A DNA stretch of 4,695 nucleotides, taken from the IMG/VR virus record IMGVR_UViG_2541047874_000001; one strand, written 5' to 3'. Position numbers and translations under genes: made by a program. This DNA is from a virus (lineage: Duplodnaviria > Heunggongvirae > Uroviricota > Caudoviricetes). Below the pieces are notes generated by a model. The model searched no databases and was not told the origin of the DNA. It worked only from the letters and a program-made list of their open reading frames with translations. Below, piece by piece: positions 2-4,569 of this stretch. How positions within the stretch are numbered: position 1 is the first letter of the stretch; the number at the start of each line of letters is the position of its first letter.

Positions 2-592
2 GAACGCCGTGATCTGTTGAATAACGTTCTGCGCATTGGTGGTTTTATGACACCAAAAGGGAAGCCTAAAGTGCCGGAAGCACTGTTTAAAAACATCTGC
101 GACTCTCTCGGCCTAAAAACAGGAAAACGTCGCGGCAGAGATGGCGATAAGCGCCCGACATTGCGTTTTGTTGAGCCTGAGTCTGTAGCATTTATGCTTG
201 ATATTCTTGCGCAACGTCAGGAGGACGGTATGACGTTGAAAGCTCGCAAGGCGGAAAAATCAACGACCGAAGTGGATCGCGATTTGTCATTAAATATATA
301 TATGAATGGTGAAACGCGATCCACAAACACGGTGGAACAGGATTCCCCTCGTTCAGCTATATCACAGGCTTTGGCCGTATTGCCGGTGGCTGTTCCTGAG
401 TCCTGGGCGATGAGTGCTCTGCCATCAGCTGAACTGGAATCTATCAGGGGGTGGTCAGTTGACAGCATCGCATACACGTTTGCAGCCCTTTATATGACTG
501 AGTTTATGGATTTGCTGTCCGGTCATGAGATTAAGTTGCTGAAGGCTTTTATAGGCCCACGACATGCCAGCGATGAGTTTTGTGTAGTTTAG
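2..592 (+). CDS. 3' end of a larger ORF truncated by the window edge; probably C-terminus of a RepA-like replication (primase/helicase) protein. A stand-alone 181-aa protein starting at ATG 47 cannot be excluded
   Basis: Frame 2 is open from position 2 with no stop until TAG at 590..592. The listed TTG start at 17 has no SD. ATG at 47 is preceded by a weak GGTGG. I see no recognisable catalytic motif in these 196 residues, so the product call rests on synteny with N15 (repA adjacent to the antirepressor locus, same strand), not on sequence recognition. Confidence 0.45.
   Translation, partial: ERRDLLNNVLRIGGFMTPKGKPKVPEALFKNICDSLGLKTGKRRGRDGDKRPTLRFVEPESVAFMLDILAQRQEDGMTLKARKAEKSTTEVDRDLSLNIYMNGETRSTNTVEQDSPRSAISQALAVLPVAVPESWAMSALPSAELESIRGWSVDSIAYTFAALYMTEFMDLLSGHEIKLLKAFIGPRHASDEFCVV
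273..323. repeat. 9-bp inverted repeat (TGGATCGCG 273..281 / CGCGATCCA 315..323) flanking an AT-rich spacer with an (AT)5 tract at 294..303; each arm carries a GATC site
   Basis: Read directly from the sequence; it lies inside the coding region of the 2..592 ORF. One such 9-bp inverted repeat within 50 bp is roughly expected by chance in 4.7 kb, so significance is modest. Confidence 0.3.
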
Positions 593-1003: not shown

Positions 1004-1023
1004 CCCCGTGACTGGTCACGGGG
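1004..1023 (+). terminator. GC-rich hairpin (CCCCGTGAC tg GTCACGGGG), possible terminator or protein-binding palindrome after the upstream genes
   Basis: 9-bp perfect inverted repeat with a 2-nt centre. Followed by TAAAATG rather than a U-run, so it is a weak intrinsic terminator at best. Confidence 0.3.
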
Positions 1024-1043
1024 TAAAATGTCTTTGCAAATTA

Positions 1044-1073
1044 TTGACGTGTGCGTCGTTTTGACGGTAAAGT
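1044..1073 (+). promoter_or_regulatory. Candidate sigma70 promoter for the leader and antirepressor operon (-35 TTGACG 1044..1049, 18-bp spacer, -10 TAAAGT 1068..1073)
   Basis: Hexamer match only. A second TTGACG sits at 1061..1066, and an alternative extended -10-like TGTGTATATAAG sits at 1160..1171 just after the terminator. The true transcription start cannot be decided from sequence. Confidence 0.25.
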
Positions 1074-1135
1074 TACTCCGCTGCGGTAAATCCCGCAGCC
1101 GGGCGTGAGAACCCGAATATCCCAAGCGACGCACA

Positions 1136-1158
1136 ACACGCGCCAGCGTGTTTTTTTT
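1136..1158 (+). terminator. Rho-independent terminator
   Basis: Perfect 6-bp stem ACACGC (1136..1141) / GCGTGT (1146..1151), 4-nt loop GCCA, immediately followed by a run of Ts through 1158. Confidence 0.75.
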
Positions 1159-1190
1159 GTGTGTATATAAGCCTGCGCATATCCGAATTA

Positions 1191-1267
1191 TGGTGGCTCA
1201 GGCGGGGCAGCCGAAAGGCTGGCCGGTATCGTTTGGGCCGGTATTCTCACCCCCGTCTGGGCTACCA
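1191..1267 (+). ncRNA. Candidate structured regulatory RNA of the phage P1 c4 / P4 CI / N15 CA antisense class (about 77 nt)
   Basis: Closing helix 1191..1207 with 1251..1267 (17 pairs: 14 Watson-Crick plus 3 G-U). Inner hairpin CAGCC-GAAA-GGCTG (1208..1221) with a GNRA tetraloop. A second short CCGG-based hairpin (1223..1241). A single-stranded stretch UAUUCUCAC (1242..1250) whose core TTCTCAC (1244..1250) is complementary to GTGAGAA inside both copies of the direct repeat GCGTGAGAAC (1103..1112 and 1278..1287). Exact RNA ends are unknown; an alternative is a short RNA from about 1081 to the terminator at 1158. Confidence 0.4.
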
Positions 1268-1327
1268 CCCCCTTAGAGCGTGAGAACTCTGGTGGTAGCA
1301 CTGTTCTTCCAAACAAGAGTGCATACC

Positions 1328-1492
1328 ATGTTCAAATTCAAATTTGCGGCAGTCGTTCGCACAGACAAAAAGTCACACATCCATCATCTTTCCACTATCG
1401 CGTCATCTGAACGGGAAGCTCGTCGCCAGTTCGCCAGCCGGTTTGTCCTGGTATTGTCTGCCCGTATTCCGGTGCGCGAGGTGGCTGCATGA
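1328..1492 (+). CDS. Hypothetical small basic protein (54 aa), first gene of the antirepressor operon; occupies the position of icd in P1/N15-type immunity operons
   Basis: ATG at 1328 with a weak SD, AAGAG (1315..1319); stop TGA at 1490..1492 overlaps the next start (ATGA). The listed GTG start at 1280 lies inside the structured leader and is judged less likely. The icd assignment is positional only. Confidence 0.45.
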   Translation: MFKFKFAAVVRTDKKSHIHHLSTIASSEREARRQFASRFVLVLSARIPVREVAA

Positions 1493-1722
1493 ATCAGGTA
1501 AAAATGAACACTGTTGGCCTGCTGGAATCGTTGGATGAACGTCTGGCTCAGGTCTATGCGCTTGTGTCATCAGCCCATCGTACAGTCTCCAGTTGTGAGG
1601 CGTCGATTTATCTCTCAGAAGCCGGGAAGCTCCTTCAAATCGCGTGTGAGTTGACACACAAAGCACAGGGGTATTCAGCATCTCTCTCGTCGCAATTGCA
1701 GCACAATAAGGAGGCCAAATGA
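1489..1722 (+). CDS. Hypothetical protein (77 aa), middle gene of the antirepressor operon (antA position)
   Basis: ATG at 1489 preceded by GAGGTGG (1478..1484); ATGA overlap with the upstream stop and again with the downstream start at 1719, indicating translational coupling. Confidence 0.6.
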   Translation: MNQVKMNTVGLLESLDERLAQVYALVSSAHRTVSSCEASIYLSEAGKLLQIACELTHKAQGYSASLSSQLQHNKEAK

Positions 1723-2501
1723 GCGCGTTAGCTGTATTTTCGTTTCAGGAAGAGCATCAGGTTCGTGTAGTGATGATTGATAGCGATCCGTGGTTTGTAG
1801 CGGCTGATGTTTGTAATGCCATCGGGATTATCAATCATCGTGATGCTGTTGGTAAGTTGGATGAAGACGAAAAGGGGGTCGGTTCAACAGACACCCTTGG
1901 AGGTAAACAGGGAGTGACAATTATCAACGAATCCGGCCTCTATACCCTAATCCTCCGCTGCCGTGATGCGGTGAAGCAAGGCACAACAGCTTGGCGGTTT
2001 CGCAAATGGGTAACGAACGAAGTCTTGCCCTCTATTCGCAAAAATGGAGAGTACGTTTACATCGAGCCTGAGCCAATGCGAGCAGCAGAGCCGTTGAACT
2101 GGAGGCAGAAAGAGTATCTGCGAGGGCTGATTAACGATATAGCACAAAGTTTTCAGTACCGAAATGCCTGGATTAGCGGTGTATGGTTAGCTTTGCGTCG
2201 GGCGTGTCGTAATCCGTCCCCGAACCCCATAACTGTTGATGATTTGCCAGCAATTACGGCAGAACTGCGCCGGATTTTGACGGCTGCTGAGTCGGCATTG
2301 GGGAACATGCGCACGTATGAACGAGAGTTGTTGCGTGATGTTGTTCGTGGGGGTAGGCGGAGTATGTCGTGTGGTGATTTGCCCATCACCGATATTAACT
2401 CTGATCTGGAAAAGGCGTTACCCGCGCATTTTGAACTGGCAGTTCAAAAACTTGAGCAGTTATCCGCGCAGTTAAAGCCAGCAGAAATCACTAATAAATA
2501 G
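1719..2501 (+). CDS. Bro-N domain protein, phage antirepressor-like (260 aa)
   Basis: ATG at 1719 preceded by AAGGAGG (1708..1714). The N-terminal ~110 aa match the Bro-N pattern as I know it (FSFQ..VRVV..D..PWFVAADVCNAIGI...DAVGKLDEDEKG...INESGLYTLILR...A..F.KWVTNEVLPSIRKNGEYVY). The C-terminal ~130 aa do not look like the usual KilA-C/ANT domain to me. Confidence 0.85.
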   Translation: MSALAVFSFQEEHQVRVVMIDSDPWFVAADVCNAIGIINHRDAVGKLDEDEKGVGSTDTLGGKQGVTIINESGLYTLILRCRDAVKQGTTAWRFRKWVTNEVLPSIRKNGEYVYIEPEPMRAAEPLNWRQKEYLRGLINDIAQSFQYRNAWISGVWLALRRACRNPSPNPITVDDLPAITAELRRILTAAESALGNMRTYERELLRDVVRGGRRSMSCGDLPITDINSDLEKALPAHFELAVQKLEQLSAQLKPAEITNK

Positions 2502-2637: not shown

Positions 2638-2663
2638 AAGGCACCGATTAATTCGGTGCCTTT
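2638..2663. terminator. Bidirectional terminator-like hairpin between the convergent antirepressor and protelomerase genes
   Basis: 10-bp perfect stem AAGGCACCGA (2638..2647) / TCGGTGCCTT (2653..2662), 5-nt loop TTAAT; 11 bp past the protelomerase stop (TAA, complement of 2674..2676) and 137 bp past the Bro-N gene stop. The T-tracts are short (3 Ts on +), so termination is likely partial. Confidence 0.5.
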
Positions 2664-2673
2664 AACGTATGCT

Positions 2674-4569
2674 TTAGCCGAAATATGTCAGCCATGCTAA
2701 CTGCATTGCTGACATGGGGCTGTTTGCACTGCCTGACCACGCATAATTCTGGCCATTATAATGAAACTCGACAACGTATGAGCCATCACCAATATTTCTC
2801 ACTGGCTTAAATACCGGCTTAGATACAGGCGAAGAAGGTGCAGGCGGTTGCTGTTCTTCTACGCTCTCTTCCTCTTCCTCTTCCTCTATCTCAATTTCGT
2901 CGTCATCCAGATCGTCATCCTCTGATAATTCATCCGCCAGTTCAGGTATTGCTTCCAGTTCTTCTTCGTCAGGCATAACGATTTCTGGAGTATCTATTTT
3001 CAGTTGCCATTGTCCGTTTTCGCCAACAAATTGCCCCAGAGCATCAGCAGCAAATTCCAGGTATCGACTAATCATTGTTGGGCTAAATTTGAACGCTCTT
3101 AGAGTGCTGTTCGTGATTTTTATAGAGGGGTCCTGCTCTACCAGCTGCTTAACTGTGTTATGCAGACGAACCCCGGCATCTCCTCTGGCGAATCCAGGCA
3201 TTTCGTCATCAAGCTGCTGCAATGCTTCCAGCCTGGTATTTTCGTTTCCAGTATTTGGCCTCCATGTCTTTGAGAAGTTGGCCAGCTTGAATTGCTTATA
3301 GTGTAATTGAGTGTTTTCATCGTCATGGCCTAAGATTTCCATAAAGAAAACATCCTCATCTACGTTTTTCCAACGAGGATCTACGCGGAAAAACATTTCA
3401 TACGCAATACGGGCATAAATAGCACGACTATCTTTATAAACACGGCGGTCATCTTTGAAAAATGATTTAACCCACGGGTTAAAAGCCTTTGCTAATATGG
3501 CATTAATACGTCCGTTTTCAGAGCGTGTGTCGTTATCTCCATAACCTTTAACGACATCATCAAAATCAGATGCTGCTGGGCATGAGCGAAGTACATTTAT
3601 TAAATAAACAAATGTTTTTGCTTCGCATAATGTATATATTTTTCTGGTTATATCATCAGAAGTTCTTTTTTTAGCTTGGCCTAAAAAATCAACGGTATAC
3701 TTACCAGAAACAGTAAATGTACCTTGATACATAATCTCAATCATTCGTCTTCCTGACAATGCAGCAAGTGCAAATGCCAAAGGAGCCATACCTGAACGAG
3801 TGTTTAGATTATTTAATGTAGCAGGGCTATTTATAATATCGTAAATAGCTTGCATATATTTAGGGTAATCAATGACCACCACGTTACGTTTCTTATTGTG
3901 CAGAACGTCCGCCCATCGTTGCTGGATAGATGCGCGTTCGGCAGGGCTTAGTTGAAGATGATAGAGAATCTCATGGTTAACTTTTAGCTGATTCAACTCC
4001 TCAAGCAAGGCAGATCCTTGCTGTAGTAATTTATATAAATAATCGCGCTTATCTTTCCAGTTATCGCTAGTTAAATCAGAAATGGCGAATTGCCACTCTT
4101 TATATTTATTTGATAATTTTAATAACTTATTATGACTTTTGTTATCACCAATTCTGATATTAGATAAATCTTCTGATAAAGGGAGAATTAATTTTAATTT
4201 TGCCTGTAAAGCTGACATTCTCTGTCGAATATCGGCAGCAGGTAGAGAAAGCCATGACAATAGCTCCTCATTATATAAAGGATACTTTTCAGATAGGCGA
4301 TGTATATTTTTTTCAAAGCTATGATGAAGTTTATCATCAAACCGTTTTCTGGCCCTGCTCATATAGGCATTGAATGTGTTGGCTGTAATTCTTTTTTCTA
4401 ATCCTTTCCCCCTAAACTTTCGCTTGTCATTAAATAATGCATTTTTAAATTTTAATGCAACAGCCTTTATTTTTTTTGTTTTTTCCCCTTGAGGACGGTC
4501 AGAGTTATCTATTGACTCAACATCGCTAACAAGTGAGTTTATTAATTCACCGATTTTTACTTTGCTCAT
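2674..4569 (-). CDS. telN: Protelomerase (telomere resolvase), TelN/TelK family, 631 aa
   Basis: The whole ORF reads as the TelN/TelK family from memory (MSKVKIGELIN..., NALFNDKRKFRGKGLEKRITANTFNAYMSRARKRFDDKLHHSF, SGRRMIEIM, RINAILAKAFNPWVKSF, KDSRAIYARIAYEMFFRVDPRW, ILGHDDENTQLHYKQFKLANF). 631 aa equals the length I recall for N15 TelN. The tyrosine in LHYKQF is residue 424 (codon TAT, complement of 3298..3300), the reported catalytic position; Arg275 and His415 are also present. SD GGAGAGGA lies 5 nt upstream of the ATG on the - strand. Confidence 0.93.
   Translation of the reverse strand: MSKVKIGELINSLVSDVESIDNSDRPQGEKTKKIKAVALKFKNALFNDKRKFRGKGLEKRITANTFNAYMSRARKRFDDKLHHSFEKNIHRLSEKYPLYNEELLSWLSLPAADIRQRMSALQAKLKLILPLSEDLSNIRIGDNKSHNKLLKLSNKYKEWQFAISDLTSDNWKDKRDYLYKLLQQGSALLEELNQLKVNHEILYHLQLSPAERASIQQRWADVLHNKKRNVVVIDYPKYMQAIYDIINSPATLNNLNTRSGMAPLAFALAALSGRRMIEIMYQGTFTVSGKYTVDFLGQAKKRTSDDITRKIYTLCEAKTFVYLINVLRSCPAASDFDDVVKGYGDNDTRSENGRINAILAKAFNPWVKSFFKDDRRVYKDSRAIYARIAYEMFFRVDPRWKNVDEDVFFMEILGHDDENTQLHYKQFKLANFSKTWRPNTGNENTRLEALQQLDDEMPGFARGDAGVRLHNTVKQLVEQDPSIKITNSTLRAFKFSPTMISRYLEFAADALGQFVGENGQWQLKIDTPEIVMPDEEELEAIPELADELSEDDDLDDDEIEIEEEEEEESVEEQQPPAPSSPVSKPVFKPVRNIGDGSYVVEFHYNGQNYAWSGSANSPMSAMQLAWLTYFG
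2851..2970 (-). other. Poly-acidic low-complexity tract within the protelomerase (residues about 534..573, including EEEEEEE), encoded by CTC/TTC repeats on the + strand
   Basis: Translation DEEELEAIPELADELSEDDDLDDDEIEIEEEEEEESVEE; the + strand reads ctcttcctcttcctcttcctc around 2861..2885. Confidence 0.8.

Follow-up and report, generated by a model that had tools for sequence, protein, structure and literature searches.

An immA-type leader in an N15-like telomere phage, predicted to encode a C4-type antisense RNA with a P4-type junction seed and a different loop seed

Introduction

Among the closest described systems is immA of phage N15, where, as Ravin, Svarchevsky and Deho are said to have reported in 1999, a CA RNA controls the icd-antA-antB operon. 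In P1 and P4 the 5′ end of the corresponding small RNA is cut by RNase P. For P4, whose CI RNA acts with seqA and seqC, the operon under control is described as the one for replication of the satellite and not an antirepressor operon, and seqA as a target in immunity, not an activator. The immI region of P1, as annotated in AF234172, is laid out as a promoter, a1 in a hairpin loop, b1, a terminator-like hairpin, the 77-nt c4 RNA, a2, b2 at the icd Shine-Dalgarno (SD) sequence, icd and ant, and differences between the seeds of P1 and P7 are the basis of their heteroimmunity (PMC12197685). The IsrK/STnc1160/orf45-anrP locus of Gifsy-1 in Salmonella begins with an isrK-type 5′ module followed by a processed-RNA region; the short RNA made there is described as an activator of its operon, not a repressor, that acts via alternative mRNA structures (PMC4825925).

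Here we analyze a leader in a 4,695-nt stretch of Caudoviricetes DNA (IMGVR_UViG_2541047874_000001), the whole of which we refer to as the window. A first-pass annotation had proposed that a GC-rich leader upstream of the antirepressor operon is an antisense-RNA immunity switch of the kind found in P1, P4 and N15, and had suggested an Rfam C4 search, alignment to N15 immA and covariation analysis as checks.

Results

Judged by its gene content, the window is part of an N15-like telomere (linear-plasmid) phage. The order of repA, small ORFs, leader, icd, antA, antB and then convergent telN is that of N15, the genes match N15 genes 37 to 29 one for one with the leader between the repA block and the convergent protelomerase gene, and a domain search found four TelK domains. 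The Icd-like ORF is 94% identical to its N15 counterpart, and the operon keeps the order of N15 genes 32-31-30. The leader is indeed GC-rich, with a GC fraction of 0.53 over 1024-1330 and 0.58 over 1080-1300 as against 0.45 for the whole window. Its identity with the cA locus of N15 is 76-79%, and N15 resembles the window not only in gene order from repA to convergent telN but also in carrying the pair of isrK and C4 Rfam matches and in the position of the terminator. A closer relative, YDC107_1, is 96.8% identical to the window overall; 36 of its 38 differences in 905-1495 sit inside the leader, and 22 of the differences in this interval lie in the 70 nt that the seeds and targets make up. 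The coordinates of the features are collected in Table 1; the hairpin at 1100-1115, the second set of seed and targets, the promoter-like site at 1044-1073 and the alternative hairpin at 1261-1299 had been missed in the first-pass annotation.

Table 1. Features of the leader and of the operon downstream, in window coordinates
Feature	Position	Strand	Description
Promoter-like site Pa	1044-1073	+	-35 TTGACG (1044-1049), 18-nt spacer, -10 TAAAGT (1068-1073)
5′ leader module	1080-1158	+	hairpin 1, hairpin 2, single-stranded stretch, intrinsic terminator
Hairpin 1 of 5′ module	1080-1099	+	stem GCTGCGG/CCGCAGC
Hairpin 2 of 5′ module	1100-1115	+	upstream GTGAGAA (a1) exposed in loop
Upstream junction-seed target a1	1105-1111	+	GTGAGAA in loop of 5′-module hairpin 2
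Upstream loop-seed target b1	1121-1129	+	CCCAAGCGA, single-stranded between hairpin 2 and terminator
Intrinsic terminator	1135-1158	+	7-bp stem 1135-1141/1146-1152, GCCA loop, eight T at 1151-1158
C4/CA/CI-type antisense RNA gene (predicted)	1186-1272	+	Rfam C4 RF01695 match
Closing helix	1191-1207/1251-1267	+	17 pairs, encloses two hairpins
C4 RNA hairpin 1	1208-1221	+	GAAA loop (1213-1216)
C4 RNA hairpin 2	1222-1242	+	carries loop seed
Loop seed (b′ in P1 naming)	1229-1237	+	TCGTTTGGG in hairpin-2 loop of C4 RNA
Junction seed (a′ in P1 naming)	1244-1250	+	TTCTCAC, single-stranded between hairpin 2 and closing helix
Alternative hairpin	1261-1299	+	GCTACCACC (1261-1269) pairs with GGTGGTAGC (1291-1299); a2 in loop
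Downstream junction-seed target a2	1280-1286	+	GTGAGAA
Downstream loop-seed target b2	1308-1314	+	TCCAAAC, adjoins icd Shine-Dalgarno
icd Shine-Dalgarno	1315-1319	+	AAGAG; icd ATG at 1328
Regulated operon	1328-2501	+	Icd-like, AntA-like and AntB-like ORFs; stop/start codons overlap
Icd-like ORF	1328-1492	+	54 aa; NCBIfam phage_ICD_like NF033153, 1.1e-18
AntA-like ORF	1489-1722	+	77 aa
AntB-like ORF	1719-2501	+	260 aa; Pfam Bro-N, 1.2e-19

A consensus scan of 900-1500 returned Pa as the sole sigma-70-like site, with no further promoter in the stretch that separates terminator and small RNA; in P1, by comparison, there are two promoters and a C1 operator (Op51) at the c4 promoter. The immB region of the phage lies beyond the window. 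Both hexamers of Pa are kept in 13 aligned telomere-phage leaders, where the variants of the -10 element have the form TAnnnT. Transcription from Pa is predicted to start near 1080, the position at which the isrK model also begins. The 5′ module is homologous to IsrK of Gifsy-1 and to the P4 seqA region: it scores 67 bits with Rfam isrK RF01394 (threshold 50) over 1080-1156, covering model positions 1-77 of 77, and the elements of the isrK type (a pair of 5′ hairpins, then an unpaired stretch and an intrinsic terminator) are all present in its fold, which has an energy of -29.2 kcal/mol (z = -2.86). The Rfam c4-a1b1 model (RF03163) gives 43.3 bits at 1067-1119, under its threshold of 46.7, which is passed by the close homologs in phiKO2 (49.1 bits) and a Serratia plasmid (48.6 bits); because the overlapping isrK match covers the region, we regard this as a threshold miss and not as an absent feature.

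The first-pass annotation had placed a 5′ hairpin at 1081-1098 and an intrinsic terminator at 1136-1158. Both are real, the hairpin stem occupying 1080-1099 and the terminator stem starting from 1135 with its eight T running to 1158. This terminator is the equivalent of P4 t1 and of the N15 terminator, and the N15 stem-loop with which it aligns is annotated in AF064539 as 'putative rho-indep. transcription terminator'. A candidate antiterminator, in which GCGTG (1103-1107) would pair with CACGC (1138-1142) at the expense of the terminator stem, was dropped as allele-specific, the pairing being absent in N15.

Beyond the terminator, the Rfam C4 search of the leader was positive, with 75.2 bits against a threshold of 45 for RF01695 (E 5.3e-14) over 1186-1272 on the plus strand, model positions 1-87 of 87. 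Here a 77-nt element (1191-1267) closed by a 17-pair helix had been described, with a GNRA-capped inner hairpin and a single-stranded TTCTCAC at 1244-1250. The element and its helix were recovered at those coordinates, the cap is the GAAA at 1213-1216, and TTCTCAC is unpaired in both the MFE and the centroid fold. The predicted energy is -50.2 kcal/mol (z = -4.83), a stability that 0 of 200 shuffles equal and that is strand-specific, since the minus strand has a z of only -0.88. In an alignment of 30 sequences that takes in P1, P4, APSE-7 and PY54, pairing holds in 99.8% of cells and changes on both sides, compensatory in kind, occur at 16 of the 27 pairs, with the outermost pairs of the closing helix (13 on the 5′ and 10 on the 3′ strand) wholly or partly fixed by the search pattern in 25 of the rows. 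None of 500 shuffles reached the observed level of covariation, and slid controls were at most 50% paired. The P1 c4 RNA has the same three-helix fold, and its alignment shows compensatory changes. In sequence P1 has little similarity to the window, and it was compared through its annotated record (AF234172) because neither blastn with the leader nor tblastn with the Icd-like ORF retrieved it. Alignment to the annotated 77-nt P1 c4 predicts a mature RNA spanning approximately 1192-1270.

The unpaired TTCTCAC is perfectly complementary to GTGAGAA in each copy of the direct repeat GCGTGAGAAC (1103-1112 and 1278-1287). The first-pass annotation had reported this repeat and its complementarity correctly, with the caveat that 7 nt of pairing and one 10-nt repeat could arise by chance. 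Following the P1 annotation (AF234172), TTCTCAC corresponds to a′ and its repeats to a1 and a2, and the loop seed described below to b′ with b1 and b2 as its targets. The chance expectation for GCGTGAGAAC is 0.01 matches, and two copies were seen in 0 of 200 dinucleotide shuffles. Among 46 distinct homologous leaders the junction seed has 7 alleles, and in 45 of them both targets carry the matching complement at conserved positions, as compared with a mean of 9.2 and a maximum of 19 when the junction seeds are shuffled among leaders. For a2, the matrix of matches between alleles is strictly diagonal, and 45 of the 46 leaders have a 7/7 match at a fixed distance (+5 to +11) past the RNA's end. 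Seeds in the homologs were set by anchoring on conserved CGGT stems because single-sequence MFE folds did not place them consistently from one homolog to another.

The second seed, in the loop of C4 RNA hairpin 2, is unpaired in the fold except for its last base, 1237, which forms a U-G pair closing the hairpin-2 stem. It can form 9 bp with b1 over its full length of 1229-1237 (one G-U; -14.0 kcal/mol) and, through 1231-1237, 7 bp with b2 (one G-U; approximately -8.4 kcal/mol). The b2 duplex ends at 1314 and so adjoins the SD, which starts at 1315, whereas the duplex of most other alleles includes GGAG. There are approximately 20 loop alleles among the 46 leaders, and each has two targets of its own that match it. 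For 45 of 45 leaders, no site taken from a leader with a dissimilar loop pairs as well with the loop as does the leader's own upstream site. Own duplexes average -12.0 kcal/mol upstream and -10.1 kcal/mol downstream, as against -5.2 and -5.4 for dissimilar alleles. Of the 33 leaders in which the start is of the icd type, 32 have a b2 duplex that ends 7-12 nt before the ATG and so covers or adjoins the SD. The transcript contains two seeds, each with an upstream and a downstream complementary site, as is characteristic of the C4 class, and, on the evidence of the alignments, both seeds co-vary with both their targets across homologs. The survey provides unusually clean three-way co-variation evidence for RNA-RNA pairing in this family, and the presence of a second seed with two targets, together with the co-variation of seeds and targets across 46 distinct leaders, removes the caveat about chance. 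Junction and loop alleles occur in at least 28 combinations among the 46 leaders.

In N15 the junction seed and its targets are TTGAGAA and TCTCAA(C), whereas those of the window are TTCTCAC and GTGAGAA; the loop seeds are TTCTTCTTGT and TCGTTTGGG, respectively. The P4 cI region is approximately 79-83% identical to the leader, with 82.9% identity over 1190-1299, and has the same layout of isrK-like module, terminator, C4-like RNA and a second set of targets, the last of which in P4 lies over an SD. The junction seed of the P4 CI RNA is identical to that of the window, as are both target contexts (CCGGGCGTGAGAACCCGA and GAGCGTGAGAACTC), and the hairpin at 1100-1115 that presents a1 is identical to a hairpin in P4 seqA. 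The loop seed of P4 differs (CCTGTGAA, pairing with TTCACAGG), and its RNA is approximately 100 nt further from the terminator than in the window. An Icd-like ORF (50% identity) also follows the RNA in P4. By sequence, then, the phage combines a junction seed of the P4/NAR688 type with a loop seed of the Kpn74/YDC107_1 type.

Positions 1261-1269 overlap the closing helix of the C4 RNA on its 3′ side and can instead form the alternative hairpin; this has an inner AGAG/CTCT stem and a predicted energy of -19.0 kcal/mol (z = -2.68). All 9 of its pairs are possible in 44 of the 46 leaders, changes on both strands in phiKO2 keep the pairing, and an equivalent is visible in P1 and P4. In the MFE structure of the full leader (1080-1345), a1 and b1 pair with the seeds in cis, the C4 fold is disrupted and the hairpin at 1261-1299 is formed. 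Because of this predicted structure, a conformational switch in cis may contribute to regulation.

Discussion

We conclude that the leader is very probably of the immA type, with a processed antisense RNA that pairs with the leader and keeps icd-antA-antB off. The antisense-switch reading put forward in the first-pass annotation is supported: the isrK and C4 Rfam families, both of which match the leader, also match the experimentally studied N15 cA and P4 seqA/cI loci; homology of the leader to N15 and co-variation of seeds and targets support it as well. The order of elements matches that of P1/P7 immI, and the antirepressor proteins differ, that of P1 being unrelated in family to the Bro-N AntB of the window. 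As the biology is of an established type, the result confirms and refines and does not surprise: the type of switch is already known in phages, and the combination of recognition sequences, a P4-type 7-mer with a different loop seed, is what is new here. On these comparisons, a function can be assigned to the 300-bp gap that precedes the antirepressor genes of an N15-like linear plasmid prophage.

In the proposed mechanism, the transcript from Pa would display a1 in a hairpin loop and b1 as a single strand just before the 1135-1158 terminator. Read-through transcripts would be processed, as in P1, P4 and N15, to release a stable small RNA of approximately 1192-1270. Pairing of this RNA with a1 and b1 on nascent leaders would, by analogy with the same three systems, increase termination at 1135-1158, and the increased termination would also limit the small RNA's own synthesis. 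On transcripts that escape, pairing with a2 and b2 would occlude the icd ribosome-binding site, and the loss of icd translation, together with polarity or termination, would keep the antirepressor off in the lysogen. The dominant step may be termination at 1135-1158, the translational block at icd or Rho-dependent polarity. Points against this main reading are that the b2 duplex of the present allele is short (7 bp, one G-U) and stops one base before the SD, that the MFE structure of the full leader lacks the C4 fold, and that the short RNA of Gifsy-1, a homolog of the 5′ module, switches its operon on.

The specificity of immunity would be set by the two seeds. Because both seeds and the junction targets differ from those of N15, the predicted specificity differs too, and from this combination of seeds we expect heteroimmunity between the phage and N15 as far as this locus is concerned. 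The predicted anti-immunity specificity also differs from that of the 97%-identical YDC107_1, and one seed is common to the satellite P4.

A further possibility, which we consider rather unlikely, is activation of the IsrK type, in which a short transcript of approximately 77 nt carrying a1 and b1 would serve as a trans decoy for the C4-type RNA, or would refold read-through transcripts, and so turn icd-ant translation on. The full-length 67-bit isrK match at 1080-1156 is consistent with it, as is the cis pairing between a1/b1 and the seeds in the full-leader MFE, which a switch of this sort would require. In Gifsy-1, anrP translation rose more than 100-fold when short IsrK was provided in trans, the processed RNA STnc1160 lies downstream, and a small ORF is translationally coupled to the antirepressor-like gene, much as in the window (PMC4825925). 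Against it, the account of seqA in P4 is that of a target which immunity requires and not of an activator (PMC3632133), and the sequence carries no sign of accumulation or regulation of a short RNA. Activation of this kind would add to the antisense explanation, and the leader would be a three-RNA toggle and not a simple repressor. More speculatively, and in our view improbably, the immA leaders of telomere phages could constitute combinatorial immunity types, in which two independent seeds are reassorted and changes copied to three sites, cross-regulation with P4 occurs, and the IsrK-like short transcript serves as a decoy, setting the point at which the antirepressor is released. On this view, as P4 and this phage have identical junction modules, the P4 CI RNA and the RNA of the phage could cross-regulate each other's leaders.

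A purely cis-acting attenuator, in which repeats and seed pair within one transcript to set access to the terminator and ribosome-binding site and no diffusible RNA is made, would also fit the MFE of 1080-1345, with its a1/b1-seed pairing and its hairpin at 1261-1299. We consider it very improbable. Conservation of the C4 fold is accompanied by many compensatory changes, its closing helix is acceptor-like and of the RNase P type, a device working only in cis would need no two sets of targets, and the homologs are described as trans-acting processed RNAs in the P1 annotation, in PMC3632133 and, for N15, in the title of PMID 10594823.

That 1148-1283 encodes a small protein and that the repeats are protein operators is scarcely credible: ORFs of 40-42 aa are present on the plus strand and CDSs are annotated over the homologous stretch in N15 U63086, LR883007 and P4 X51522 ('cA secondary immunity repressor', 'ash family protein'), but we rejected the coding interpretation because the element is 78, 79 or 80 nt long in close homologs, which would shift any reading frame, because substitutions are compensatory for RNA pairs and because neither ORF matches any NCBIfam family. 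The repeats, moreover, change in step with an unpaired segment of the RNA and stay its reverse complement, which a protein operator would have no need to do. On the antisense-RNA reading, public annotation can be corrected at this position, where 'ash family protein', 'secondary immunity repressor' and 'transcriptional repressor' are among the CDS labels that overlie the predicted RNA gene.

Family membership and architecture of the leader

By every testable feature except the c4-a1b1 threshold, which is a near miss, the leader belongs with the C4/CA/CI family and the N15-type immA loci. The Rfam comparison proposed in the first-pass annotation proved positive, the C4 antisense RNA model scoring 75.2 bits over 1186-1272 against a gathering score of 45; isrK scores 67 bits over 1080-1156, where the gathering score is 50, and c4-a1b1 reaches 43.3 bits at 1067-1119, narrowly below its cut-off of 46.7. 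The isrK and C4 pair also occurs at the N15 cA locus, the P4 seqA/cI locus, in phiKO2, PY54, a Serratia plasmid and APSE-7, whose record already annotates both RNAs and both pairing seeds. Blastn identity of the leader is 76-79% to N15 and about 79-83% to P4. Barquist et al. described IsrK and C4 as structural homologs of P4 seqA and CI RNA, with similar systems in P1, P7 and N15 (PMC3632133).

The features named in the first-pass annotation are all present where it placed them, including the 5′ hairpin, the intrinsic terminator and the 77-nt element in whose fold TTCTCAC is unpaired, and the leader is indeed GC-rich (0.58 in 1080-1300 versus 0.45 for the window). Folding of 1191-1267 gives -50.2 kcal/mol (z = -4.83, matched by 0/200 shuffles), whereas the reverse strand shows no such excess (z = -0.88), which assigns the RNA to the + strand. 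Pa, the sole promoter-like site found in 900-1500, is kept in 13 aligned leaders and places the start of transcription near 1080, the first position of the isrK match. The perfect 8-bp inverted repeat directly 5′ of Pa is shared by YDC107_1 (an Escherichia phage, genus Ravinvirus), and may be a terminator of the upstream operon or an operator.

Features of the leader and surrounding genes, in window positions
Feature	Position	Strand	Remark
Replication protein, C-terminal part	17-592		
Small ORFs			between replication protein part and gap
Gap, ~300 bp			before Icd-like ORF; N15 counterpart is the cA/immA leader
Inverted repeat	1004-1023		CCCCGTGA-CTGG-TCACGGGG
Pa	1044-1073		TTGACG-18-TAAAGT
5′ hairpin	1080-1099		
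Second 5′ hairpin	1100-1115		a1 in 8-nt loop; absent from first-pass annotation
Target a1	1105-1111		GTGAGAA
Target b1	1121-1129		CCCAAGCGA, just 5′ of terminator
Intrinsic terminator stem	1135-1141/1146-1152		then eight T
77-nt element	1191-1267	+	17-pair closing helix
GAAA-capped hairpin	1208-1221		
Hairpin 2	1222-1242		
Loop seed	1229-1237		TCGTTTGGG, in hairpin 2 loop
Junction seed	1244-1250		TTCTCAC
Alternative hairpin	1261-1299		GCTACCACC (1261-1269) with GGTGGTAGC (1291-1299)
Target a2	1280-1286		GTGAGAA
Target b2	1308-1314		TCCAAAC, adjoins icd Shine-Dalgarno on 5′ side
icd Shine-Dalgarno	1315-1319		AAGAG
Icd-like ORF	1328-1492		54 aa; NCBIfam phage_ICD_like, 1.1e-18
ORF	1489-1722		77 aa
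Bro-N protein	1719-2501		260 aa
Intergenic hairpin	2641-2659		GCACCGA-TTAAT-TCGGTGC
Protelomerase	2674-4569	-	631 aa, convergent; four TelK domains

Two seeds and a proposed mechanism

In addition to the junction seed, the RNA carries a loop seed that the first-pass annotation lacked, which forms 9 bp with b1 (-14.0 kcal/mol) and 7 bp with b2 (about -8.4 kcal/mol). The sites run target a, target b, then loop seed, junction seed, then target a, target b, and therefore each target set can form antiparallel duplexes with the two seeds together, at predicted energies of -25.0 kcal/mol for the upstream set and -22.5 kcal/mol for the downstream one. P1 is annotated with the same arrangement: promoter, hairpin loop with a1, b1, terminator-like hairpin, 77-nt c4, a2 and b2, the last lying over the icd Shine-Dalgarno and followed by icd and ant; in P1 naming TTCTCAC corresponds to a′, and b′ is the loop seed.

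With the parts and their mutual complementarity in place, the working steps can be proposed by analogy with P1, P4 and N15. Transcription from Pa would either stop at 1135-1158, yielding an IsrK-like RNA of ~77 nt, or read through, and processing of read-through transcripts would release the C4-type RNA, its mature form being predicted at about 1192-1270 from alignment to P1 c4. RNase P forms the 5′ end of the RNA in P1 and P4. Pairing with a1/b1 on nascent leaders would increase termination and thereby autoregulate synthesis of the RNA itself; such enhanced termination by the small RNA is described for P4 t1/seqA and for N15. On transcripts that escape, pairing with a2/b2 would block icd translation and, by coupling and polarity, lower antA and antB as well. 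Either of these steps may dominate. The alternative hairpin presents a2 in its loop and shares sequence with the 3′ side of the C4 closing helix; it cannot coexist with that helix in complete form. It can form in 44/46 homologs, phiKO2 retaining the pairing via changes on both strands, and may serve to switch processing or conformation.

A role of the short transcript as decoy or activator is a live addition to this antisense model, because in Gifsy-1 a short RNA homolog activates a downstream antirepressor-like gene via alternative structures (PMC4825925), and the full-leader MFE fold of the window contains analogous cis pairing.

Co-variation of seeds, targets and structure

Homologs came from blastn of phage and plasmid records and from a pattern scan anchored solely on the conserved closing-helix strands, leaving the seeds unconstrained, which together gave 46 distinct leaders. 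Their junction seeds comprise seven alleles (TTCTCAC, TTCCTAC, (G)TTGAGA(A), TTGCGAA, GTTCCAA, ACGCCAA and TTGTCAC), and in 45/46 exact complements flank the RNA on either side at conserved offsets; with seeds shuffled among leaders this number averages 9.2 and never exceeds 19. The allele-by-allele matrix for the downstream junction target is strictly diagonal. For the loop seed, with about 20 alleles, a leader's own duplex has a mean energy of -12.0 kcal/mol at the upstream target and -10.1 at the downstream one, versus about -5.3 for dissimilar alleles; the own site is better than every dissimilar one in 45/45 leaders upstream and 28/45 downstream. Where the start is of the icd type, 7-12 nt separate the end of the downstream duplex from the ATG in 32/33 leaders. 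Across 30 sequences, P1, P4, APSE-7 and PY54 among them, 99.8% of cells in the RNA fold are paired and 16/27 pairs are altered on both sides, a count whose outer closing-helix part (13 pairs 5′ strand, 10 pairs 3′ strand) is less informative because the search pattern partly fixed it in 25/30 rows.

Protein ORFs are annotated over the counterparts of window 1148-1283 as 'cA secondary immunity repressor', 'ash family protein' or 'transcriptional repressor', with coding sequences over the RNA gene in N15 U63086 (cA), LR883007 (JL014_RS24445) and P4 X51522 (cI). These ORFs are probably not real, given that the element is variously 78, 79 or 80 nt long, that substitutions preserve RNA pairs by compensation and that NCBIfam has no match for either ORF. 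Co-variation and length polymorphism indicate that the coding annotations are artefacts. Reverse-complement co-variation of seed and targets rules out both a protein operator and the chance origin that the first-pass annotation had allowed for the direct repeat GCGTGAGAAC, whose two copies have a chance expectation of 0.01 and recur in 0/200 shuffles.

Some viral contigs hold two to four C4-type leaders (homologous records L031, L033, L045 and L059, all from IMGVR_UViG_2609459977_000002, and L041 7411-7813), in one case as two copies 320 nt apart with different seeds.

Comparison with related elements

The window leader is a new specificity combination within a known switch type, confirming known biology without surprise; the reassorted two-seed pattern across telomere phages and possible P4 cross-talk are the sole parts beyond known descriptions. 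Both seeds differ from those of N15, whose gene order the window shares (counterparts are N15 genes 37 to 29), and the leader of the E. coli plasmid record NZ_LR883007 is 99.7% identical. YDC107_1 differs in the junction seed, with a coordinated swap of that seed and both its targets; of 38 differences in 905-1495, 36 fall in 1078-1308, and 22 lie inside the seeds and targets, which total 70 nt, a concentration that suggests recent exchange of specificity. The leader is a divergence hotspot, its identity to YDC107_1 being just 88.6% (1078-1308) versus 96.8% across the full 4,695 bp.

In P4 the loop seed alone differs. Its junction module (830-850 and 1050-1100 of the X51522 reverse complement) is letter for letter that of window 1100-1115, 1243-1251 and 1275-1290, with TTCTCAC in the RNA, hairpin CCGGGCGTGAGAACCCGA upstream and context GAGCGTGAGAACTC downstream in common, and P4 CI RNA and the window leader might therefore be partly cross-regulated. 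Just 3′ of its CI RNA, P4 carries an Icd-like ORF (1172-1327 of the same P4 record; 50% identity across 52 aa, E 7e-7), so the RNA-icd linkage reaches a satellite phage.

The intergenic hairpin between the convergent antB-like and protelomerase genes is probably a terminator common to both. The C4-like part (window 1189-1299) matches 1,777 plasmid records at about 78% identity, 1,401 of them predicted conjugative and many being 87-120 kb plasmids of E. coli, Salmonella and Shigella; matches (H87-H134, e.g. NC_002122) lack annotation or are labelled 'ash family protein'. Judged by these matches, C4-type RNAs seem common on conjugative plasmids.
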